This document shows positions 732 through 9,623 of a stretch of 64,000 nt of DNA, piece by piece. The notes under the pieces are model-generated. The model made no database searches. It had not been told where the DNA came from and was given only the letters and a program-made list of their open reading frames with translations. The stretch lies in the NCBI RefSeq assembly GCF_056746865.1, contig NZ_CM163382.1. One strand, written 5' to 3'. Positions within the stretch are counted from its first letter, which is position 1; every line of letters starts with the position of its first letter. Made by a program: the position numbers and the translations under genes.

Positions 732-1337
732 ATGACTATAAAAAATCTACCTGCCGACTATTTATTGGCTGCGCAACAGGGTGATATCGATAAAGTAAAA
801 ACATGCCTTGCGCTGGGTGTCGATATTAATACTTGCGATCGTCAGGGGAAAACGGCAATTACGCTGGCAAGTTTATATCAGCAATATGCTTGCGTTCAGG
901 CATTAATTGATGCCGGAGCGGATATTAATAAGCAAGATCAAATATGTTCAAATCCTTTTTTAATTAGCTGCCTGACCGGCGATTTAACCCTGTTACGGAT
1001 TATTTTACCGGCTAAACCTGATCTTAATTGCGTCACCCGTTTTGGCGGTGTCGGCCTGACGCCTGCCTGTGAAAAAGGCCATTTAAGTATTGTAAAAGAG
1101 CTTTTGGCGCATACGGAGATTAACGTTAACCAGACCAACCATGTTGGCTGGACGCCGCTACTGGAAGCAATTGTGCTTAATGATGGCGGGATTAAACAGC
1201 AGGCGATTGTCCAGTTATTGCTGGAACACGGTGCCAGCCCGCACATGACGGATAAATATGGCAAAACGCCGCTGGAACTGGCGCGGGAACGAGGCTTTGA
1301 AGAGATTGCGCAGTTACTGATTGCCGCAGGTGCATAA
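732..1337 (+). CDS. yahD: ankyrin-repeat protein
   Basis: ORF track 201 aa; repeated ankyrin-like motifs (GADIN, GKTAITLA, GWTPLLEA, GKTPLELA). Confidence 0.85.
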   Translation: MTIKNLPADYLLAAQQGDIDKVKTCLALGVDINTCDRQGKTAITLASLYQQYACVQALIDAGADINKQDQICSNPFLISCLTGDLTLLRIILPAKPDLNCVTRFGGVGLTPACEKGHLSIVKELLAHTEINVNQTNHVGWTPLLEAIVLNDGGIKQQAIVQLLLEHGASPHMTDKYGKTPLELARERGFEEIAQLLIAAGA

Positions 1338-1376: not shown

Positions 1377-2240
1377 GTGTGGGCGCTAACTGCGGATGCT
1401 GATTTTCTAGCGCAGCGGGGGCAAGGACAGGTTGAACAGGTCTTTGCCAGAGCGGTAAATATCGCACTTCCGGCCCGCCAGCAGTTGCTGACGCTGCTTT
1501 GTGAAGAGTACGACAATGCGCCAAACAGTTGTCGGTTGGCACTCACTCACTTTGATGGTCTGTTCCGGCATGGTGATAAGGTTCAGTTTGACGATCAAGG
1601 CATTACGATTGGTCAACATCTTCATATAGAGATGAGTCATTGCCTGCGTTGGCTGTCCCCAACCTTGCAAATGGCCGCTGTGAATTTTCACCTTATCGCC
1701 TGGCAACAGTGGCATGACATTATTCATCAGCACCTGGGGGAAAATGAAACCCTGTTTAATTATCGCGGCGATAATCCGTTTTATCAGGCGTTAAATAAAG
1801 CACTACATATTAAACGTCGGGCAGTTATTCAGGCAGTAAACGATAAACAAAATATCGCCTCAGCAGTCGCCAGTATGATGGGCTTAGGGATTGGCCTTAC
1901 GCCATCAGCCGATGATTATTTAACAGGTCTGGCGCTTATTTTATTTATTTCCGGGCATCCGGCAGAAAAATACAAAGAGGAATTTTATCGCGGTCTGCAA
2001 CGCGGCAGAAATAATACCACGTTATTAAGTGCCATAACGCTGGAAGCCGCATTACAACAACGCTGCCGGGAAAATATTCATCGTTTTATTCATAACATTA
2101 TTTATGACATCCCTGGGAACGCAACTCAGGCAATAGAAAAAATTAAACATATTGGCTCCAGTTCCGGCTGCGACATGCTGTATGGCATGGCCGATGGTTG
2201 TGCGCTGAGCCAAACCTACGGAGGGAATTATGTCAGTTAA
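1377..2240 (+). CDS. yahE: DUF2877-family protein (YlbF-like)
   Basis: ORF track 287 aa; matches recalled YahE length and position; overlaps yahF start by 11 nt. Confidence 0.8.
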   Translation: MWALTADADFLAQRGQGQVEQVFARAVNIALPARQQLLTLLCEEYDNAPNSCRLALTHFDGLFRHGDKVQFDDQGITIGQHLHIEMSHCLRWLSPTLQMAAVNFHLIAWQQWHDIIHQHLGENETLFNYRGDNPFYQALNKALHIKRRAVIQAVNDKQNIASAVASMMGLGIGLTPSADDYLTGLALILFISGHPAEKYKEEFYRGLQRGRNNTTLLSAITLEAALQQRCRENIHRFIHNIIYDIPGNATQAIEKIKHIGSSSGCDMLYGMADGCALSQTYGGNYVS

Positions 2241-3777
2241 AATAGTCATTAAACCGAATACCTATTTTGATTCTGTCTCGCTGATGTCTATCTCCACGCG
2301 TGCAAATAAACTCGACGGCGTCGAGCAGGCATTTGTGGCGATGGCGACCGAAATGAACAAAGGCGTGCTGAAGAATTTAGGACTGCTGACGCCGGAGCTG
2401 GAGCAGGCGAAAAACGGCGACCTGATGATTGTCATCAATGGTAAATCGGGTGTGGACAACGAGCAGTTGCTGGCGGAGATTGAAGAACTGTTCAACACCA
2501 AAGCGCAAAGTGGCTCGCACGAGGCGCGTTACGCCACTATTGCCAGCGCCAAAAAGCATATCCCGGAAAGTAACCTGGCGGTGATTTCGGTCAACGGTCT
2601 GTTTGCCGCTCGCGAAGCGCGTCAGGCGCTGCAAAACGATCTTAACGTGATGCTGTTTTCCGATAACGTCTCAGTTGAAGATGAACTGGCGCTCAAACAG
2701 TTGGCCCACGAAAAAGGGCTGCTGATGATGGGGCCAGACTGCGGTACGGCGATTATCAACGGCGCGGCGCTCTGCTTTGGTAACGCCGTGCGTCGCGGCA
2801 ACATCGGCATTGTTGGCGCATCCGGCACCGGTAGCCAGGAACTGAGCGTCCGTATCCATGAATTTGGCGGCGGCGTTTCGCAACTGATCGGCACCGGCGG
2901 GCGCGACCTGAGCGAGAAAATCGGCGGCCTGATGATGCTCGACGCCATCGGGATGCTGGAAAACGATCCGCAAACTGAAATCATTGTGCTTATCTCCAAA
3001 CCGCCTGCGCCTGCGGTGGCCCGCAAAGTGCTGGAACGCGCGCGCGCCTGCCGCAAGCCAGTGGTGGTTTGCTTCCTCGGTCGTGGCGAAACGCCGGTGG
3101 ATGAGCAGGGGCTACAGTTTGCCCGCGGCAGTAAAGAGGCGGCGCTGAAAGCGGTAATGCTCTCCGGCGTGAAACAGGAACATCTCGACCTGCATACCCT
3201 GAACCAGCCATTGATTGCTGACGTGCGCGCTCGCCTGCAACCGCAACAGAAATACATTCGTGGCCTGTTCTGCGGCGGCACGCTGTGCGACGAAACGATG
3301 TTCGCGGTGATGGAAAAACACGGCGATGTCTACAGCAACATTCAGCCCGATCCGGAATTCCGCCTGCAAGATATCAGCCGCAGCATCAAACACACCTTCC
3401 TCGACTTTGGTGATGACGACTTCACCAACGGCAAGCCGCATCCAATGATTGACCCGACCAACCGCATCAGTCGCTTGATCGAAGAAGCGCGCGATCCAGA
3501 AGTGGCGGTGATCGTGATGGATTTTGTGCTCGGATTTGGATCGCATGAAGATCCGGTCGGCTCCACCATCGAGGCGATCAAAGAAGCGAAAGCGATCGCC
3601 GCTGCCGAAGGACGTGAGTTGATCATTCTCGCCTATGTGCTGGGTACCGATCTTGATACGCCATCATTAGAACAACAAAGCCAGATGCTGCTTGATGCCG
3701 GAGTGATTCTGGCCAGCAGTAGCACCAATACCGGATTGCTGGCGCGTGAATTTATCTGCAAAGGGGAGGAAGCCTGA
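2230..3777 (+). CDS. yahF: FdrA-like acyl-CoA synthetase/CoA-binding family protein
   Basis: ORF track 515 aa; glycine-rich CoA-ligase-like motifs (GIVGASGTGSQE, GTGGRD). Confidence 0.85.
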   Translation: MSVKIVIKPNTYFDSVSLMSISTRANKLDGVEQAFVAMATEMNKGVLKNLGLLTPELEQAKNGDLMIVINGKSGVDNEQLLAEIEELFNTKAQSGSHEARYATIASAKKHIPESNLAVISVNGLFAAREARQALQNDLNVMLFSDNVSVEDELALKQLAHEKGLLMMGPDCGTAIINGAALCFGNAVRRGNIGIVGASGTGSQELSVRIHEFGGGVSQLIGTGGRDLSEKIGGLMMLDAIGMLENDPQTEIIVLISKPPAPAVARKVLERARACRKPVVVCFLGRGETPVDEQGLQFARGSKEAALKAVMLSGVKQEHLDLHTLNQPLIADVRARLQPQQKYIRGLFCGGTLCDETMFAVMEKHGDVYSNIQPDPEFRLQDISRSIKHTFLDFGDDDFTNGKPHPMIDPTNRISRLIEEARDPEVAVIVMDFVLGFGSHEDPVGSTIEAIKEAKAIAAAEGRELIILAYVLGTDLDTPSLEQQSQMLLDAGVILASSSTNTGLLAREFICKGEEA

Positions 3778-5195
3778 TGAGCCAGTCACTGTTTAGCCAA
3801 CCGTTGAACGTTATTAACGTCGGTATCGCCATGTTTAGCGATGATCTGAAAAAACAGCATGTAGAAGTGACCCAACTCGACTGGACGCCGCCGGGGCAGG
3901 GCAATATGCAGGTGGTGCAGGCGCTGGATAACATTGCCGATTCGCCGCTGGCAGACAAAATCGCCGCCGCTAACCAGCAGGCGCTGGAGCGCATTATCCA
4001 GTCGCATCCGGTGCTGATTGGTTTTGATCAGGCGATTAACGTGGTGCCGGGCATGACGCCGAAAACCATTCTTCACGCCGGGCCGCCGATCACCTGGGAA
4101 AAAATGTGCGGCGCGATGAAAGGCGCGGTCACCGGGGCGCTGGTGTTCGAAGGGCTGGCGAAAGATCTCGACGAGGCGGCTGAACTGGCGGCCTCCGGGG
4201 AGATCTCCTTCTCGCCGTGCCACGAACATGACTGCGTGGGATCGATGGCGGGTGTTACCTCGGCCTCGATGTTTATGCACATCGTAAAAAACAAAACCTA
4301 CGGCAACATCGCTTACACCAATATGAGCGAGCAGATGGCGAAGATTTTGCGTATGGGCGCTAACGACCAGAGCGTGATTGACCGCCTCAACTGGATGCGC
4401 GATGTGCAGGGGCCAATGCTGCGCGACGCGATGAAAATTATCGGCGAGATCGATCTGCGCTTAATGCTGGCGCAAGCGCTGCATATGGGCGATGAATGCC
4501 ATAACCGCAATAACGCCGGGACGACGCTGCTGATTCAGGCGCTGACGCCGGGGATTATTCAGGCGGGTTATTCCGTCGAGCAACAGCGCGAAGTGTTTGA
4601 GTTTGTCGCCAGCAGCGACTACTTCTCCGGCCCGACGTGGATGGCGATGTGTAAAGCGGCGATGGATGCGGCGCACGGCATCGAATACAGCACCGTGGTG
4701 ACCACCATGGCGCGTAACGGCGTCGAGTTCGGCCTGCGGGTCAGCGGCCTGCCGGGGCAATGGTTTACCGGTCCGGCGCAGCAGGTCATCGGCCCGATGT
4801 TTGCCGGTTATAAGCCGGAAGATTCGGGGCTGGATATCGGCGACAGCGCCATCACCGAAACCTACGGCATTGGCGGATTTGCTATGGCGACCGCGCCCGC
4901 GATCGTCGCGCTGGTGGGTGGCACGGTGGAAGAGGCTATCGATTTCTCCCGTCAGATGCGTGAAATCACCCTTGGCGAAAACCCCAACGTCACCATTCCG
5001 CTGCTCGGTTTTATGGGCGTGCCATCGGCAATCGACATCACCCGCGTGGGTAGCAGTGGCATTCTGCCGGTGATCAACACCGCCATCGCTCATAAAGATG
5101 CGGGCATCGGCATGATTGGCGCGGGCATTGTGCATCCACCATTCGCCTGCTTCGAGAAAGCCATTCTTGGCTGGTGCGAACGTTACGGCGTTTGA
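3777..5195 (+). CDS. yahG: DUF1116-family protein (YlbE-like)
   Basis: ORF track 472 aa; start overlaps yahF stop (ATGA). Confidence 0.8.
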   Translation: MSQSLFSQPLNVINVGIAMFSDDLKKQHVEVTQLDWTPPGQGNMQVVQALDNIADSPLADKIAAANQQALERIIQSHPVLIGFDQAINVVPGMTPKTILHAGPPITWEKMCGAMKGAVTGALVFEGLAKDLDEAAELAASGEISFSPCHEHDCVGSMAGVTSASMFMHIVKNKTYGNIAYTNMSEQMAKILRMGANDQSVIDRLNWMRDVQGPMLRDAMKIIGEIDLRLMLAQALHMGDECHNRNNAGTTLLIQALTPGIIQAGYSVEQQREVFEFVASSDYFSGPTWMAMCKAAMDAAHGIEYSTVVTTMARNGVEFGLRVSGLPGQWFTGPAQQVIGPMFAGYKPEDSGLDIGDSAITETYGIGGFAMATAPAIVALVGGTVEEAIDFSRQMREITLGENPNVTIPLLGFMGVPSAIDITRVGSSGILPVINTAIAHKDAGIGMIGAGIVHPPFACFEKAILGWCERYGV

Positions 5196-5217
5196 CTCTC
5201 CAACCGCACCTTACGAT

Positions 5218-5242
5218 CCCTTCTCCCTTCAGGGGAGAGGGG
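5218..5242 (+). other. stem-loop (10-bp stem with one G-T pair, 5-nt loop) in yahG-yahI spacer
   Basis: cccttctccc ttcag gggagagggg; no downstream T-tract. Confidence 0.4.
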
Positions 5243-5290
5243 CAACCTCACTCTCATAACCCCATCACCCTCTGTAGCGGACATAACAAC

Positions 5291-6241
5291 ATGAAAGAAC
5301 TTGTGGTCGTTGCCATTGGTGGCAACAGCATTATCAAAGATAACGCCAGCCAGTCGATTGAGCATCAGGCGGAGGCGGTGAAAGCCGTCGCTGATACGGT
5401 GCTGGAAATGCTGGCTTCCGATTACGACATTGTGCTGACCCACGGCAACGGGCCGCAGGTCGGGCTGGATTTACGCCGCGCGGAGATAGCCCACGAGCGC
5501 GAAGGGCTGCCCTTAACGCCGCTGGCGAACTGTGTGGCGGATACGCAAGGCGGCATTGGCTATCTGATCCAACAGGCGCTGAATAACCGACTGGCGCGTC
5601 ACGGTGAGAAAAAAGCCGTCACCGTGGTGACTCAGGTGGAAGTGGATAAAAACGATCCGGGGTTTGCCCATCCCACCAAGCCCATCGGCGCATTCTTTAG
5701 TGAAAGCCAGCGTGACGAATTACAAAAGGCAAACCCTGACTGGCGTTTTGTTGAAGATGCCGGACGGGGCTATCGCCGCGTGGTCGCCTCGCCGGAACCG
5801 AAACGTATTGTCGAAGCACCGGCCATTAAGGCGCTGATCCAACAAGGCTTTGTGGTGATTGGCGCGGGCGGCGGCGGAATCCCGGTGGTGTGCAGTGAAG
5901 CGGGGGATTACCAAAGCGTGGACGCGGTTATCGACAAAGATCTCTCTACCGCGCTATTGGCCCGTGAAATTCACGCTGACATTCTGGTGATCACCACTGG
6001 CGTCGAAAAAGTGTGTATTCACTTTGGCAAACCGCAGCAGCAGGCGCTGGATCGCGTAGATATTGCCACCATGAACCGCTATATGCAGGAAGGGCATTTT
6101 CCGCCTGGCAGCATGTTGCCAAAAATCATCGCCAGCCTGACGTTCCTGGAACAGGGCGGCAAAGAAGTGATTATCACCACGCCGGAATGCCTGCCTGCGG
6201 CGCTGCGCGGTGAAACGGGCACCCATATTATTAAAACGTAA
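5291..6241 (+). CDS. yahI: carbamate kinase-like protein
   Basis: ORF track frame 5174..6241; start moved to ATG 5291 (MKELVVVAIGGNS...) giving 316 aa typical of carbamate kinases. Confidence 0.85.
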   Translation: MKELVVVAIGGNSIIKDNASQSIEHQAEAVKAVADTVLEMLASDYDIVLTHGNGPQVGLDLRRAEIAHEREGLPLTPLANCVADTQGGIGYLIQQALNNRLARHGEKKAVTVVTQVEVDKNDPGFAHPTKPIGAFFSESQRDELQKANPDWRFVEDAGRGYRRVVASPEPKRIVEAPAIKALIQQGFVVIGAGGGGIPVVCSEAGDYQSVDAVIDKDLSTALLAREIHADILVITTGVEKVCIHFGKPQQQALDRVDIATMNRYMQEGHFPPGSMLPKIIASLTFLEQGGKEVIITTPECLPAALRGETGTHIIKT

Positions 6242-6250
6242 GGACGTAAG

Positions 6251-7633
6251 ATGAAAGAAAACAATAGCCGCCGTGAATTTCTGAGCCAGAGCGGTAAGAT
6301 GGTCACCGCCGCCGCGCTGTTTGGTACGTCTGTGCCGCTCGCCCATGCGGCAGTCTCTGGCACAATCCATTGCGACGCGAATAACACCATGAAAATCACT
6401 GACCCGCACTACTATCTCGACAACGTGCTGCTGGAAACCGGTTTTGACTACGAAAACGGTGTGGCGGTACAGACCCGCACGGCGCACCAGACCGTAGAGA
6501 TTCAGAACGGCAAAATTGTTGCCCTGCGCGAGAACAAGCAGCATCCGGACGCCACGCTGCCGCACTATGACGCTGGCGGTAAGCTGATGCTGCCCACCAC
6601 CCGCGACATGCATATTCATCTCGACAAAACCTTTTACGGCGGGCCGTGGCGCTCGCTCAATCGCCCGGCAGGCACCACCATCCAGGACATGATCAAACTC
6701 GAGCAGAAAATGCTGCCGGAGCTGCAACCGTACACTCAGGAACGAGCGGAAAAACTGATCGATTTATTGCAGTCGAAAGGCACTACCATTGCCCGCAGCC
6801 ACTGCAATATCGAACCGGTTTCCGGCCTGAAAAATCTGCAAAATTTGCAGGCGGTGCTGGCGCGACGTCAGGCGGGCTTCGAGTGTGAAATTGTCGCCTT
6901 CCCGCAGCACGGTTTGCTGCTGTCGAAATCGGAACCCTTAATGCGTGAAGCGATGCAGGCGGGGGCGCATTACGTCGGCGGTCTGGATCCGACCAGTGTT
7001 GATGGCGCGATGGAAAAATCCCTCGATACCATGTTCCAGATTGCGCTGGACTACGACAAAGGCGTTGATATTCACCTGCACGAAACCACTCCGGCAGGCG
7101 TGGCAGCCATCAATTATATGGTTGAAACGGTGGAGAAAACGCCGCAACTGAAGGGCAAGCTGACCATCAGCCACGCCTTTGCGCTGGCAACGCTCAATGA
7201 GCAACAGGTAGATGAACTGGCGCACCGGATGGCGGCGCAGCAAATTTCTATCGCCTCGACGGTGCCGATTGGCACGCTGCATATGCCGCTCAAACAGTTG
7301 CACGACAAAGGCGTAAAAGTGATGACCGGCACCGACAGCGTTATCGACCACTGGTCGCCTTACGGCCTGGGCGACATGCTGGAAAAAGCCAATCTGTACG
7401 CGCAGCTCTATATTCGTCCTAACGAACAGAACCTCTCCCGCTCGCTGTTTTTAGCCACTGGCGATGTATTGCCGCTCAACGAAAAAGGCGAGCGCGTGTG
7501 GCCCAAAGCGCAGGATGATGCCAGCTTTGTGCTGGTGGACGCCTCCTGTTCCGCCGAGGCGGTGGCGCGTATCTCGCCGAGAACGGCGACGTTCCATAAA
7601 GGGCAACTGGTGTGGGGGAGTGTGGCAGGTTGA
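6251..7633 (+). CDS. yahJ: amidohydrolase-family deaminase with twin-arginine (Tat) signal peptide
   Basis: ORF track 460 aa; N-terminus SRREFLSQSG...AAALFG...AHA; metal-dependent amidohydrolase-like HxH region (DMHIHLD). Confidence 0.85.
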   Translation: MKENNSRREFLSQSGKMVTAAALFGTSVPLAHAAVSGTIHCDANNTMKITDPHYYLDNVLLETGFDYENGVAVQTRTAHQTVEIQNGKIVALRENKQHPDATLPHYDAGGKLMLPTTRDMHIHLDKTFYGGPWRSLNRPAGTTIQDMIKLEQKMLPELQPYTQERAEKLIDLLQSKGTTIARSHCNIEPVSGLKNLQNLQAVLARRQAGFECEIVAFPQHGLLLSKSEPLMREAMQAGAHYVGGLDPTSVDGAMEKSLDTMFQIALDYDKGVDIHLHETTPAGVAAINYMVETVEKTPQLKGKLTISHAFALATLNEQQVDELAHRMAAQQISIASTVPIGTLHMPLKQLHDKGVKVMTGTDSVIDHWSPYGLGDMLEKANLYAQLYIRPNEQNLSRSLFLATGDVLPLNEKGERVWPKAQDDASFVLVDASCSAEAVARISPRTATFHKGQLVWGSVAG

Positions 7634-7894
7634 TACGCATTTGAAACGCCTGCAATGGTGAATCGTAAGAGATTTAAAGCCCCAGGGAGTGGGGCGGGAA
7701 TGGTTTGTTAATGAATGATCCTGAACTTTATAATCTCCCGGCATAATTTCCAGGGGATTATTTGAGAGAAATACACAAAAGTGAGTTTTAACAATATTTA
7801 TCAAGCCATAAATGTGACCGGCTTCGGATAAAAAAGATTAAACATAGAAAAACCAATGATCCTCTTGCTGATGGTTATCAACAGTAATTAAGAT

Positions 7895-8338
7895 GTGATT
7901 TTTTTCCGTAATCGCGAAAATATTCTCATGACCATAAAAGAAAAAATCTCACAAAAATATCCCCATGCTTCCTTTTGTACTTTTGGCGATTCAGCAGCGT
8001 TGGCCGATCACCTCGCAACGTTGATTGCGACAGGTGTTAAAACAGCTTCCTGTGGTTCGCTGGCGGGATGTATTGAAGACAACGCATTTCCGATGATTGG
8101 TGAGTATAAGATTGTAGAAAATAGCCGTGGTGAGCCTGTCTGTGTTATCAGAGTGATTGGCCTGCATTTACTGCGCTTTTCTGATGTCACCGCGGAGCTT
8201 GCCCGTAAGGAAGGTGAAGGTGACCTCAGTCTTGAATATTGGCGTAATGAACACCGTCGTTTTTTCCAGGCAGAAGGATGCTATTCACCCGAAATGGACG
8301 TTATCTTTGAAGAATATGCCCTTATTGACGTTGTGTAG
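7895..8338 (+). CDS. ASCH-domain (PUA-like fold) protein
   Basis: ORF track 147 aa; GxK motif (ATGVKTASCG); real start may be ATG at 7928; no strong Shine-Dalgarno at either. Confidence 0.55.
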   Translation: MIFFRNRENILMTIKEKISQKYPHASFCTFGDSAALADHLATLIATGVKTASCGSLAGCIEDNAFPMIGEYKIVENSRGEPVCVIRVIGLHLLRFSDVTAELARKEGEGDLSLEYWRNEHRRFFQAEGCYSPEMDVIFEEYALIDVV

Positions 8339-8588
8339 ATAACTATTTTTCTACGCGAAATAAGCTCACAAACATAAAATATCGCTAATTTTGTTTATTT
8401 TGCTATTTTTTACGTGATGAATGTCACACTTATTATTGCTGCCCGTTTTGTCCATATTTATAACCAAATTTTTAATAGCTGCCTGAAATAGGGCTGTTTA
8501 TTCTGCATAAAAATATTCGAAAATTCTTATTCTCTCCAGCGCGCTAATTTGGGCGAACACTTCCTGACTACCCTGCAATGAGGCTGAA

Positions 8589-9575
8589 ATGATGAATAAA
8601 CGTTTTGTTATCAATATGGTGTCTTCGCTGTTATTAGGCGCTGCGCTAATTTCTGCGCCGCTCCAGGCAGCGGAAAAAGTCGTGGTGAATATCTCTAAAG
8701 TCGATGGTATGCCGTGGTTTAATCGCATGGGCGAAGGTGTGGTCGAGGCGGGTAAAGCCTTTGGTGTTAATGCGTCACAGGTGGGGCCTTCAAGTACTGA
8801 TGCTCCGCAACAGGTTAAAATCATTGAGGATTTAATCGCCCGTAAGGTTAATGCAATTACAATTGTGCCAAACGATGCCAACGTGCTGGAACCGGTATTC
8901 AAAAAAGCGCGAGATGCCGGAATTGTGGTTCTGACCAACGAATCCCCCGGTCAGCCAAGTGCTAACTGGGATATCGAAATCATTGATAACGAAAAATTTG
9001 CCGCTGAATATGTTGAACATATGGCGAAACGCATGGGTGGCAAGGGCGGCTATGTGATTTACGTGGGTAGTTTGACCGTGCCGCAGCATAACTTATGGGC
9101 TGACTTGCTGGTGAAATACCAGAAAGAGCATTACCCGGATATGCATGAAGTTACCCGCCGCATGCCGGTTGCCGAGAGTGTGGATGACTCACGTCGTACC
9201 ACACTGGACCTGATGAAAACCTATCCTGACTTGAAAGCGGTTGTCTCCTTTGGTTCAAACGGTCCGATTGGCGCGGGACGTGCAGTGAAAGAGAAACGGG
9301 CGAAAAATAAAGTCGCAGTCTATGGCATGATGATCCCTTCACAGGCGGCATCACTGATTAAAAGTGGTGATATCACCGAAGGGATTACTTACGATCCGGC
9401 CTCTGCAGGTTACGCACTCGCGGCCGTCGCCAGCACGTTGCTGAAGGGTGAAGAGATCAAACCTGGATTAGAAATGCAGAATCTGGGGAAGGCCGACGTA
9501 GATATAGATAAGCGAATTATCCGTTTCCATAAGGTACTGCTGGTCAACAAAGACAATATCGACTCACTTTATTAA
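8589..9575 (+). CDS. periplasmic sugar-binding protein of ABC transporter (PBP type 1, LsrB/RhaS-like)
   Basis: ORF track 328 aa; cleavable signal peptide (MMNKRFVINMVSSLLLGAALISAPLQA); GAGG Shine-Dalgarno upstream. Confidence 0.75.
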   Translation: MMNKRFVINMVSSLLLGAALISAPLQAAEKVVVNISKVDGMPWFNRMGEGVVEAGKAFGVNASQVGPSSTDAPQQVKIIEDLIARKVNAITIVPNDANVLEPVFKKARDAGIVVLTNESPGQPSANWDIEIIDNEKFAAEYVEHMAKRMGGKGGYVIYVGSLTVPQHNLWADLLVKYQKEHYPDMHEVTRRMPVAESVDDSRRTTLDLMKTYPDLKAVVSFGSNGPIGAGRAVKEKRAKNKVAVYGMMIPSQAASLIKSGDITEGITYDPASAGYALAAVASTLLKGEEIKPGLEMQNLGKADVDIDKRIIRFHKVLLVNKDNIDSLY

Positions 9576-9623
9576 TCCATTTCTTCGGGGCGAAAGCCCC
9601 GATTCTTATTGCCAGGGGATGTT

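Follow-up and report, generated by a model that had tools for sequence, protein, structure and literature searches.

Introduction

Among the Tat substrates of Escherichia coli that lack complex redox cofactors are AmiA, AmiC, SufI, MdoD, and YcbK, and YahJ has been tabulated alongside them. What they have in common with YahJ is an N-terminal motif of the S/T-RR-x-F-L type, an h-region of moderate hydrophobicity, and an AxA site. In Bacillus subtilis, phoD-tatAd-tatCd encodes a Tat substrate together with its own translocase. In the KatB-AnkB pair of Pseudomonas aeruginosa, the enzyme reportedly requires a periplasm-associated ankyrin protein to be fully active. AllFGH was shown experimentally to be an oxamate carbamoyltransferase of anaerobic allantoin degradation; that study does not mention the yah genes (PMC11326118).

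The Tat signal of YahJ is already known. Listings and tests of it date back to the 2000s, and it is nothing new on its own. YahJ is included in a TATFIND-derived E. coli list, and Table 2 of PMC7549933 gives it as a Tat substrate with the signal MKESNSRREFLSQSGKMVTAAALFGTSVPLAHA, predicted with TatP 1.0. Its function appears in Tat lists as "Unknown" or "putative deaminase." Deletion of yahJ in ExPEC caused a mild competitive defect (CI, 0.70; P = 0.02) (PMC7549933). Passages of PMC6788121, which cite Tullman-Ercek 2007 and Fisher 2008, state that the YahJ signal (ssYahJ) mediates periplasmic translocation, is recognized by both Tat and Sec, and functions in both E. coli and V. natriegens as a tag for secretion. 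In the literature that we searched, we found nothing on the location of native full-length YahJ and nothing relevant to the function of yahD, yahE, yahF, yahG, or yahI. The new element in the present work is the broader gene neighborhood around the YahJ signal.

Results

The yahJ locus and its start codon

The window, a 64,000-nucleotide stretch of DNA, is E. coli chromosome. Several E. coli chromosomes match its yahJ region at 100% identity and annotate it as "yahJ: amidohydrolase family protein." The features that we located are listed in Table 1. The yahI stop codon and the yahJ ATG are 9 nt apart, and a Shine-Dalgarno (SD)-like sequence, TAAGGA, precedes the ATG. We found SD-like matches of at least 5 nt at the same yahJ start in 61 of 74 orthologue loci. 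Because TAAGGA is present and most orthologues carry such a match, the start codon at position 6251 is well supported.

Table 1. Features of the yahD-to-yahJ region (positions in the window)
Feature	Position	Strand	Details
yahD, ankyrin-repeat protein, signal-less	732..1337	+	Pfam Ank families
yahE, AllH family	1377..2240	+	PF11392, E = 8.6e-29, 100.8 bits
yahF, FdrA/AllF-like	2230..3777	+	NF004760 "acyl-CoA synthetase FdrA," 491 vs 433; Pfam CoA_binding, Ligase_CoA
yahG, AllG family	3777..5195	+	PF06545, E = 6.9e-89, 297.5 bits
yahG-yahI intergenic stretch, former "yahH"	5196..5290	.	Site of the 516-aa permease-like gene in relatives
yahI, carbamate kinase family, signal-less	5291..6241	+	NF009007, 645.7 bits vs 266 cutoff
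yahJ SD-like TAAGGA	6239..6244	+	Read from sequence; overlaps yahI stop TAA (6239-6241)
yahJ ORF	6251-7633	+	460 aa; stop codon included in coordinates
YahJ signal peptide, residues 1-33	6251..6349	+	MKENNSRREFLSQSGKMVTAAALFGTSVPLAHA, then AVSGTIH
Twin-arginine motif S6-R7-R8-E9-F10-L11	6266..6283	+	
h-region, M17-L30	6299..6340	+	MVTAAALFGTSVPL, 14 residues; mean Kyte-Doolittle hydropathy 1.56
c-region, A31-H32-A33	6341..6349	+	AxA signal-peptidase-I-type site, no basic residue; then A34
Predicted cleavage after A33	between 6349 and 6350	+	
Variable linker, residues 34-48	6350..6394	+	Cleavage site to catalytic domain
Amidohydrolase domain, CodA/AtzC branch	6395..7633	+	NF005312, 716 bits vs 447 cutoff
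HxH metal motif, H121/H123	6611-6619	+	

The N terminus of YahJ has the anatomy of a Tat signal

The preliminary description of this DNA identified a Tat signal at the YahJ N terminus from SRREFLSQSG, a hydrophobic stretch, and AHA. We found all three elements where they had been placed, and the identification was right. S12 stands at the K position of the consensus S/T-R-R-x-F-L-K, and the h-region sits within a 25-residue uncharged run. Among the 114 window ORFs of at least 100 aa, only YahJ has a strict [ST]RRxF[LIVM] motif in its first 35 residues; the chance expectation is ~2e-4 per protein N terminus by our own approximation, which is distinct from TatP and TATFIND. The YahJ motif also matches the TatP pattern, RR.[FGAVML][LITMVF].

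With the Tat-signal model TIGR01409, the E. coli YahJ peptide scored 15.2 bits, just below the 16.7-bit cutoff, and residues 6 to 33 aligned to profile positions 2 to 29 of 29. The Serratia orthologue (21.0) and the orthologue P0126 (21.7) scored above the cutoff, and others scored 11.7 to 11.9 or had no match. The controls, a Sec-type signal from the same window and YahI, gave no match to TIGR01409. A scan of the 40-residue YahJ N terminus against the Pfam library also gave none.

The early mature region of YahJ, AVSGTIHCD, has zero positive charge. The rule that links positive charge to Sec avoidance is said to come from Tullman-Ercek 2007, and the lack of positive charge in the c-region and early mature region of YahJ fits the reported ability of the isolated signal to use both Sec and Tat. 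This promiscuity, reported in passages of PMC6788121, would set the YahJ signal apart from those of AmiA, AmiC, SufI, MdoD, and YcbK, in that it is not Tat specific. The two checks that the preliminary description had proposed, a TatP prediction and export fusions, are in substance already in the literature. The published TatP prediction is positive for a peptide one residue away from that of the window (MKENN... versus MKESN..., N4 versus S4), and the same passages of PMC6788121 state that ssYahJ drives periplasmic export via Tat and Sec; this report is the source for the export capacity of the isolated signal.

The signal is conserved, and Bacillaceae homologues are encoded with tatA and tatC

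Across 73 proteobacterial yahJ loci, we found that RR is invariant (73/73), with F at +3 and L or I at +4 in 72 each and S at -1 in 57. All 73 orthologues have AxA-like sites, by a permissive pattern. In contrast to the conserved signal, the linker that follows the cleavage site is hypervariable, and this combination argues for continued use of the signal. The wider YahJ family is mostly signal-less. Those homologues start at the catalytic domain, at about residue 49, which is also where the family model NF005312 begins. Judged from these alignments, the signal appears to be an add-on to a family that otherwise begins with the catalytic domain.

In Priestia, Ectobacillus, and Metabacillus, the gene for a signal-bearing YahJ homologue is directly followed on the same strand, within 30 to 75 bp, by tatA and tatC. 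Fredinandcohnia has a 72%-identical signal-less homologue with no adjoining tatA-tatC pair. The Bacillaceae arrangement resembles phoD-tatAd-tatCd, although the cargo is an amidohydrolase rather than a phosphodiesterase and E. coli yahJ has no adjoining tat genes. The adjacency provides independent genomic support for Tat dependence.

These data bear on whether the YahJ N terminus in practice works as a Sec signal, or as one that serves either pathway, so that the twin arginines are not decisive for export of the native protein. Such a signal would account for the reported promiscuity, for the missing "Sec-avoidance" charge, and for the TIGR01409 score below the cutoff, but Sec targeting would not need an RR-x-F-L motif that is essentially invariant over 73 loci. 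It is also at odds with the dedicated tatA-tatC pair of the signal-bearing Bacillaceae homologues and with the h-region, which by our own script is less hydrophobic (1.56) than the bona fide Sec-type signal of an ABC-transporter binding protein in the same window (2.04). Furthermore, a metal-containing enzyme of ~430 residues that is already folded is typical of Tat cargo and ill suited to Sec. We consider the Sec reading very unlikely.

The signal could also be vestigial or bypassed, leaving YahJ cytoplasmic or dually localized, for example, through initiation at Met47 (ATG at 6389). Signal-less homologues begin almost exactly there, and 37 of 74 loci have an ATG in the 10 codons that precede the domain. 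However, half of the loci lack the internal Met, and the SD-like matches upstream of it are mostly weak (3 nt in 21 loci, 4 nt in 10, and 5 nt in 5), in contrast to those at the N-terminal start. A bypassed signal would agree with a distant gene cluster, L094 (see below), whose enzyme is signal-less, but not with a signal architecture that is conserved as a whole while the linker drifts. Alternative initiation at Met47 giving a cytoplasmic isoform is not supported, and we regard a vestigial or bypassed signal as highly improbable. We conclude that the YahJ N terminus is very probably a genuine, selectively maintained, and functional Tat export signal.

YahJ is an amidohydrolase related to AtzC and CodA

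YahJ also matched Pfam Amidohydro_3 (PF07969; 68.9 versus a cutoff of 29.7). We found that H121, H123, D125, K126, H275, H277, and D362 are invariant over 17 diverse homologues. PDB relatives of YahJ are 6nbo (3.8e-44), AtzC (2qt3/4cqb; ~3e-30), and CodA (1k6w; ~1e-15). AtzC and CodA are among the best solved sequence relatives, and the alignment of the YahJ family shows no variation at the HxH, His, and Asp positions. In contrast to YahJ, the solved AtzC/CodA-type chains have no counterpart to its first ~50 residues; these chains of 403 to 426 aa align from near their N termini to YahJ residues 77 to 107 onward. YahJ scored below the NCBIfam equivalog or subfamily cutoffs for cytosine deaminase (NF005759, 69.9 versus 403; NF005748, 103.4 versus 438; NF006685, 82.6 versus 483), which rules out membership in that equivalog and makes YahJ a relative only.

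The Priestia yahJ homologue adjoins a Xan_ur_permease gene, and one signal-less homologue adjoins a Bmp-family ABC transporter, a family with nucleoside specificity. Conserved clusters include PucR-family regulators and a permease named "xanthine / adenine-guanine-hypoxanthine permease" in the source databases. The substrate of YahJ is probably a nucleobase-like compound.

The neighboring genes resemble an AllFGH-type set, and E. coli lacks the cluster permease

The preliminary description called the rest of the cluster cytoplasmic looking, with no signal peptides on YahE, YahF, YahG, and YahI. On inspection, the N termini of these four proteins and of YahD had neither an RR motif nor an n/h/c signal architecture; the first reading was therefore borne out, and YahD likewise has no signal. 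The hydrophobic start of YahI falls inside the carbamate kinase model match, which begins at residue 1. As a description of the cluster, "cytoplasmic looking" holds for these E. coli proteins but not for most of its relatives, since 27 of 37 loci with yahI have, between yahG and that gene, one for a permease-like membrane protein of 516 aa.

The E. coli locus does not have that permease gene. The former yahH stretch is reported to be filled with REP sites, and a tblastn search of the whole window found no permease remnant. By this comparison, E. coli has lost the permease here. The 516-aa protein gave no sequence match in Pfam, NCBIfam, or PDB, and a profile comparison with Xan_ur_permease was not significant (probability, 0.1; Neff, 1.16). 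Its label as a nucleobase permease rests on source-database names and one precomputed PF00860 match.

YahE, YahF, and YahG match AllH, FdrA/AllF, and AllG, respectively, and they are encoded together with an adjoining carbamate kinase, YahI, as in an AllFGH-type set. By family membership, YahEFG would be an AllFGH-type carbamoyltransferase, and the yah proteins are paralogues of the AllFGH set. By analogy, the two sets may share a logic that leads from a carbamoyl compound through carbamoyl phosphate to ATP. The yah cluster differs in that it also has an ankyrin protein and, except in E. coli, which has lost it, an AzgA-like permease; where the allantoin pathway has AllB/AllC/AllD, it has an exported amidohydrolase of the CodA/AtzC type.

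The cluster recurs in distant genomes, and yahJ also occurs without it

In three distant contigs (L092 to L094), we found the permease, the ankyrin protein, the AllH/F/G-like proteins, and the amidohydrolase together again, with carbamate kinase in two of the three. Identity among the YahJ homologues of these contigs, or between them and E. coli YahJ, is 36 to 52%. L094 has the same gene cluster with a signal-less amidohydrolase, which argues that the pathway does not depend on export. The recurring cluster carries an exported amidohydrolase in some genomes and a cytoplasmic one in others.

yahJ is found without yahEFGI at about 35 of 80 genomic loci, typically with only a LysR regulator as its neighbor and sometimes with an ankyrin protein. 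Such loci occur in Xenorhabdus, Photorhabdus, Shewanella, Rahnella, Pantoea, Halomonas, and all sampled Alphaproteobacteria. In Erwinia, Cedecea, and Enterobacter sp. Ag1, yahD directly adjoins yahJ and the yahEFG-permease-yahI block is absent. Cassettes with AllFGH-like proteins and carbamate kinase also accompany other hydrolases, such as an isochorismatase on the APEC O1 tkt1 island. All of these arrangements favor a periplasmic but self-contained YahJ, a scavenging or detoxifying enzyme with no obligatory link to YahEFGI, for which the E. coli operon would reflect coregulation or history. Three very distant contigs have the amidohydrolase in one cluster with AllH/F/G, the permease, and the ankyrin protein; such recurrence would be difficult to account for if no functional link existed, and it weakens this proposal. 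We regard a self-contained YahJ as possible but doubtful; since yahJ is frequently found without yahEFGI, a shared pathway is tentative.

According to the preliminary description, export of YahJ constrains what the cluster can be doing. The export signal is real. The signal-less L094 enzyme and the yahJ loci without yahEFGI, however, show that the compartment of the amidohydrolase step is evolutionarily flexible and not a fixed constraint.

yahD is the most consistent companion of yahJ

Across taxa, the gene that most consistently accompanies yahJ is yahD, ahead of the carbamoyltransferase genes. Ankyrin homologues are also present in the three distant clusters. At alphaproteobacterial yahJ loci, the ankyrin protein has its own Sec- or lipoprotein-type signal, whereas YahD of Enterobacterales has none. 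The arrangement is similar to KatB-AnkB in that an ankyrin gene lies beside an enzyme gene and in that the alphaproteobacterial ankyrin protein carries a signal. It differs in that enterobacterial YahD is signal-less and that a YahD-YahJ interaction is putative. We modeled a YahD-(GGGGS)6-mature YahJ fusion with AlphaFold2 from a shallow, 15-row genome-paired alignment, without PAE. The model had a pTM of 0.56, a mean pLDDT of 78.6, and low-confidence active-site loops, and at this alignment depth it showed no confident YahD-YahJ interface.

Discussion

We propose that YahJ most likely folds and gains its metal in the cytoplasm. TatABC would then recognize SRREFL and translocate YahJ through the inner membrane in its folded state; cleavage after AHA by signal peptidase I would free a ~47-kDa enzyme in the periplasm. 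There, YahJ would most likely deaminate or hydrolyze a small, nucleobase-type N-heterocyclic compound. In the ancestral cluster, the AzgA-like permease, whose gene lies between yahG and yahI, may have imported the product. YahEFG, as an AllFGH-like carbamoyltransferase, and YahI, as a carbamate kinase, would then have received it, so that the carbamoyl group would end up in ATP. We infer the localization of native YahJ, its substrate, and the link from periplasm to cytoplasm, and we put forward the pathway logic that joins YahJ to the permease, YahEFG, and YahI only tentatively. Because E. coli does not have the permease, the proposed ancestral import step would have no dedicated carrier at this locus.

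A bolder proposal, which we think unlikely as a whole, is that the true conserved partner of exported YahJ is YahD. YahD would either be coexported by hitchhiking on the Tat signal of YahJ or act as a cytoplasmic export chaperone. On a wider scale, the set of ankyrin protein, permease, AllHFG, carbamate kinase, and amidohydrolase would be an ancient, uncharacterized pathway from N-heterocycle through carbamoyl phosphate to ATP, whose first, hydrolytic step would have shifted repeatedly between cytoplasm and periplasm and would have recruited a dedicated TatAC in Bacillaceae.

The Tat signal of YahJ is an anchor for an uncharacterized part of the E. coli "y-ome." The comparative data indicate that yahD to yahJ form an old, widely distributed cluster, of which the E. 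coli version is without the cluster permease at this locus, and these data narrow the path to the YahJ substrate. The association of yahD with yahJ suggests, as a lead only, a possible new case of Tat hitchhiking.

A twin-arginine signal peptide on YahJ

The preliminary description read the N-terminus of YahJ as a Tat signal, and we found all the classical elements of one there. The 460-residue product begins with MKENNSRREFLSQSGKMVTAAALFGTSVPLAHA|AVSGTIHCDANNTMKITDPHYYLDN and has a polar n-region, the motif S-R-R-E-F-L (the consensus S/T-R-R-x-F-L-K with Ser replacing Lys), a 14-residue h-region within a 25-residue uncharged run, and the cleavage site A-H-A. The h-region is modestly hydrophobic (mean Kyte-Doolittle value, 1.56), less so than the Sec-type signal of the ABC transporter binding protein in the same window (2.04). 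Among the 114 window ORFs of at least 100 aa, YahJ alone had [ST]RRxF[LIVM] in its first 35 residues; by our own approximation, about 2e-4 such motifs per protein would be expected by chance. YahE, YahF, YahG, and YahI had been described as unsignalled, and their N-termini indeed lack an RR motif and signal architecture, as does that of YahD.

HMM support for the Tat signal is weaker than the motif implies. TIGR01409 (TAT_signal_seq), a curated Tat signal model, aligned end to end with YahJ residues 6 to 33 but scored 15.2 bits against a cutoff of 16.7, and a Pfam scan of the YahJ N-terminus matched nothing. When orthologous N-termini were scored with TIGR01409, Serratia (21.0) and the database protein P0126 (21.7) exceeded the cutoff, three scored 11.7 to 11.9, and three had no match. 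Other weak HMM matches of these N-termini were solely to families whose members bear Tat signals (formate dehydrogenase TAT target, PhoD, PhsA, and MelC1). The controls, a Sec signal and the YahI N-terminus, gave no Tat match.

The Tat reading of YahJ is correct and had already been published. TatP 1.0 named YahJ (MKESNSRREFLSQSGKMVTAAALFGTSVPLAHA, function "Unknown") as 1 of 25 Tat substrates in an ExPEC genome, and a yahJ deletion mutant was mildly outcompeted in mice (CI, 0.70; p = 0.022) (PMC7549933). It also appears as b0324 yahJ, "putative deaminase," in an E. coli Tat substrate table after Dilks et al. 2003 (PMC3027627), and the isolated signal peptide, ssYahJ, has served to direct secretion, as a tag, in both E. 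coli and Vibrio natriegens (PMC6788121). Because YahJ is in these lists and export of ssYahJ has been reported, the TatP and export checks proposed earlier have in substance been done.

The YahJ c-region and the start of the mature protein (SVPLAHA|AVSGTIHCD) have no positively charged residue. Under the charge rule, positive charge in this region bears on Sec versus Tat routing. Its absence from YahJ agrees with the Sec/Tat promiscuity that has been reported for the peptide in isolation.

Coordinates of features in the window and at related loci (L-numbers)
Feature	Locus	Coordinates	Strand
yahD	window	732-1337	+
yahG-yahI gap	window	5196-5290	
yahJ	window	6251-7633	+
yahJ signal, codons 1-33	window	6251-6349 (6251-6350 in the preliminary description)	+
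ASCH-domain gene	window	7928-8338	
Four-gene sugar/AI-2-type ABC transporter	window	8589 to about 13025	
516-aa membrane protein	L011	7461-9011	
516-aa membrane protein	L024	7466-9046	
516-aa membrane protein	L049	7336-8889	
Homologue-tatA-tatC unit	L003 (Priestia)	10001-12438	
Homologue-tatA-tatC unit	L088 (Ectobacillus)	5001-7474	
Homologue-tatA-tatC unit	L089 (Metabacillus)	5001-7498	
Signal-bearing ankyrin gene	L002	2937-3611	
Signal-bearing ankyrin gene	L067	11432-12109	
Signal-bearing ankyrin gene	L068	12404-13081	
Signal-bearing ankyrin gene	L063	8007-8798	
Plasmid copy of cluster	L095 (E. coli)	3107-11540	
Isochorismatase-family hydrolase	L058 (Serratia)	11405-12031	
Isochorismatase-family hydrolase	L059 (Serratia)		
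Isochorismatase-family hydrolase	L005 (Acinetobacter)	1952-2761	

Conservation and spread of the signal

The motif, h-region, and AxA site are retained in nearly all of the 120 database proteins nearest to YahJ (identity of 70% or more; Escherichia, Citrobacter, Klebsiella, Serratia, Xenorhabdus, Erwinia, Cedecea, Aeromonas, and Pragia), and the 15 to 20 residues from the cleavage site to the conserved HYYLDN are hypervariable. We also collected 80 yahJ loci, one genome per species, 73 of which were analysable for the N-terminus. RR was present in 73/73, F at +3 in 72/73, L/I at +4 in 72/73, and S at -1 in 57/73. A constrained signal beside a linker free to vary is the mark of a signal that the cell uses.

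A vestigial signal, or translation from the internal Met47, is not supported: this ATG is present in only half of the loci, and the SD-like matches upstream of it are weak, mostly 3 nt. The N-terminal start has an SD-like match of at least 5 nt in 61/74 loci. In the window, TAAGGA lies 7 to 12 nt 5' of the yahJ start codon, which is therefore well supported; the yahI stop codon lies within it. Several E. coli YahJ entries of just 414 to 434 aa (P0016, P0019, P0023, and P0034 to P0036) have the signal intact, which suggests C-terminally truncated alleles. YahI and YahJ are fused as a single protein of 677 to 780 aa in some entries (P0001 to P0003 and P0008), all singleton clusters and possibly artefacts of assembly or sequencing at the 9-nt spacer.

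We searched 50%-identity representatives exhaustively and obtained 169 relatives in all at an E value of 1e-30 or less. Of these, the nearest branches have Tat-type N-termini (P0122, 62% identity; P0123, 51%; P0126, 48%; P0134; P0145, 36%; and P0215), and P0124 has an RK variant of the motif. The remaining full-length representatives examined (about 400 to 450 residues) start at the catalytic domain or within about 25 residues of it, and the match of the subfamily model NF005312 to YahJ begins only at residue 49. Thus, the signal is an addition to a family whose members are mostly cytoplasmic. In Bacillaceae and Paenibacillaceae, signal-bearing (FSRRKFLGN..KIGGASAVLG) and signal-less forms stand side by side at 70 to 75% identity, implying repeated gain or loss of the signal.

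tatA-tatC beside Bacillaceae homologues

In Priestia (L003 and L004), Ectobacillus (L088), and Metabacillus (L089), tatA and then tatC lie 30 to 75 bp 3' of the signal-bearing homologue on the same strand. This arrangement resembles phoD-tatAd-tatCd of B. subtilis, in which a Tat substrate gene lies beside its own translocase genes. As judged from gene order, the genes of these three genera form a unit of substrate and dedicated translocase, and the tat neighbours are independent genomic support for Tat dependence. Export of YahJ by Sec only is unlikely, since RRxFL is invariant across loci and dedicated TatAC pairs accompany the homologues of these genera. Upstream of the Priestia homologue is a divergent Xan_ur_permease gene. 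In Fredinandcohnia, the homologue has no signal (72% identity to the Priestia protein), and the genes downstream of it instead encode an AraC regulator, an MFS transporter, and a creatininase. No tat genes were found downstream of a signal-bearing Paenibacillus gene, whose upstream side ends at the contig edge.

Enzyme class of YahJ

YahJ matched Amidohydro_3, Amidohydro_1, and NF005312 (716 bits) and fell short of the cytosine deaminase equivalog models. The nearest solved structures are 6nbo, AtzC (2qt3 and 4cqb), and CodA (1k6w), and an alignment of 17 members (34 to 62% identity) shows no variation at H121, H123, D125, K126, H275, H277, or D362. On the basis of these matches, structures, and residues, YahJ is probably catalytically active, as a metal-dependent enzyme that deaminates or hydrolyses an N-heterocycle. 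The need for folding and metal loading before export is a common rationale for Tat use.

The yah gene cluster

The window is E. coli chromosomal DNA. Bases 5000 to 8500 are 100% identical to several complete E. coli genomes, in which yahG, yahI, yahJ, and the ASCH-domain gene are annotated. The annotated order around yahJ is betT, pdeL, yahB (LysR), yahC, yahD, yahE, fdrA-like (yahF), yahG, yahI, and yahJ. The ASCH-domain gene and the ABC transporter genes lie between yahJ and yahK, a segment that K-12 presumably lacks. At least 80% of bases 5000 to 8500 is covered in just 2213/5426 E. coli genomes; therefore, the segment 3' of yahJ is variable within the species.

By family, YahE is AllH, YahG is AllG, YahF is FdrA/AllF-like, and YahI is a carbamate kinase, making YahEFG paralogous to AllFGH. 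AllFGH was characterised in 2024 as oxamate carbamoyltransferase, in a paper that does not discuss the yah genes (PMC11326118). The 80 loci differ in gene content. Those of Escherichia, Pseudocitrobacter, Citrobacter, Kluyvera, Enterobacter, Lelliottia, Klebsiella, Raoultella, Serratia oryzae, Buttiauxella, and Providencia have the arrangement yahD-E-F-G-...-I-J. The yahJ neighbourhoods of Xenorhabdus, Photorhabdus, Shewanella, Rahnella, Pantoea, Halomonas, and every alphaproteobacterium sampled lack it; at loci without it, a LysR regulator is the usual neighbour.

In 27/37 yahI-bearing loci, a highly conserved 516-aa polytopic membrane protein is encoded between yahG and yahI (hosts include Citrobacter, Enterobacter, Providencia, and Serratia). 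Pfam, NCBIfam, and PDB sequence searches gave no match to it; in source databases, its homologues go under the names "xanthine permease," "AGZA family xanthine/uracil permease-like," and "adenine/guanine/hypoxanthine permease." The E. coli yahG-yahI gap is 95 bp of REP-like sequence, formerly "yahH," and we found no remnant of the permease-like gene in the window. The gene is present in 141/5426 E. coli genomes, with 106/151 places on plasmids. The E. coli IncFII plasmid p24A16CRGN010_A bears a second, Citrobacter-like copy of the cluster (LysR, ankyrin, AllH, FdrA-like, YlbE-like, the 516-aa membrane protein, and carbamate kinase) that ends in IS fragments; yahJ is not annotated in the region shown.

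On the tkt1 pathogenicity island of APEC O1, a further set resembling yahE/yahF/yahG is accompanied by genes for a carbamate kinase, a putative permease, and a putative isochorismatase hydrolase (table in PMC3349570), which suggests that AllFGH-like and carbamate kinase cassettes are modular and paired with different hydrolases. Genes for isochorismatase-family hydrolases also recur near YahJ homologues: in Serratia proteamaculans and S. marcescens, one lies immediately 3' of the homologue, and in Acinetobacter, one is close to the signal-less homologue, along with genes for an amidase and a Bmp-family ABC transporter.

The ankyrin protein YahD as a possible partner

Where the yahEFG-permease-yahI block is missing, a YahD-like gene abuts yahJ, with gaps of 14 bp in Erwinia persicina and about 65 bp in Cedecea neteri and Enterobacter sp. 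Ag1; no signal was seen on these three YahD proteins. At alphaproteobacterial-type loci, the adjacent ankyrin protein, unlike enterobacterial YahD, has a Sec-type or lipoprotein-type (LTGC) N-terminus. This circumstantial evidence suggests that it works with YahJ outside the cytoplasm. If so, the enterobacterial protein could be co-exported on the YahJ Tat signal or could be a cytoplasmic chaperone. At about 35 loci, no ankyrin gene accompanies yahJ. AlphaFold2 gave a YahD-linker-YahJ fusion a pTM of 0.56 (15-row paired alignment), and the literature searched held no published YahD function.

Distant clusters and the location of the enzyme step

Three distant contigs have the same set. L092 encodes a permease (70% identical), an ankyrin protein, AllH, AllF, AllG, and carbamate kinase, flanked by PucR and LysR regulators, and its YahJ-like protein has the Tat signal SRRRTFIKGG. 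L093 has this set minus the kinase; a PucR regulator is encoded there, and the YahJ-like protein bears LSRRKFINGIG. L094 has AllF, AllG, the permease, an ankyrin protein, carbamate kinase, an AraC regulator, and a signal-less YahJ-like protein (MSSTYWLYNVRLESGY). The YahD homologues of all three (392 to 455 aa; no Pfam family on record, no signal) are about 36% identical to YahD over about 190 residues (tblastn against window 732-1319; E values, 1e-28 to 1e-33). YahJ may instead act by itself, with no link to YahEFGI, but this reading is weakened by the recurrence of the set in distant taxa. The yah-type cluster thus appears to be ancient and occurs with both exported-type and signal-less amidohydrolases; the amidohydrolase step would be part of a conserved pathway, but the compartment of that step is not fixed. 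Export had been proposed to constrain what the cluster does. This inference is partly supported: export means that the substrate of E. coli YahJ must be reachable in the periplasm, but what chemistry the cluster performs does not follow from it. The Tat signal as first described was known, and the comparative results are modestly interesting leads toward the function of the yah cluster.
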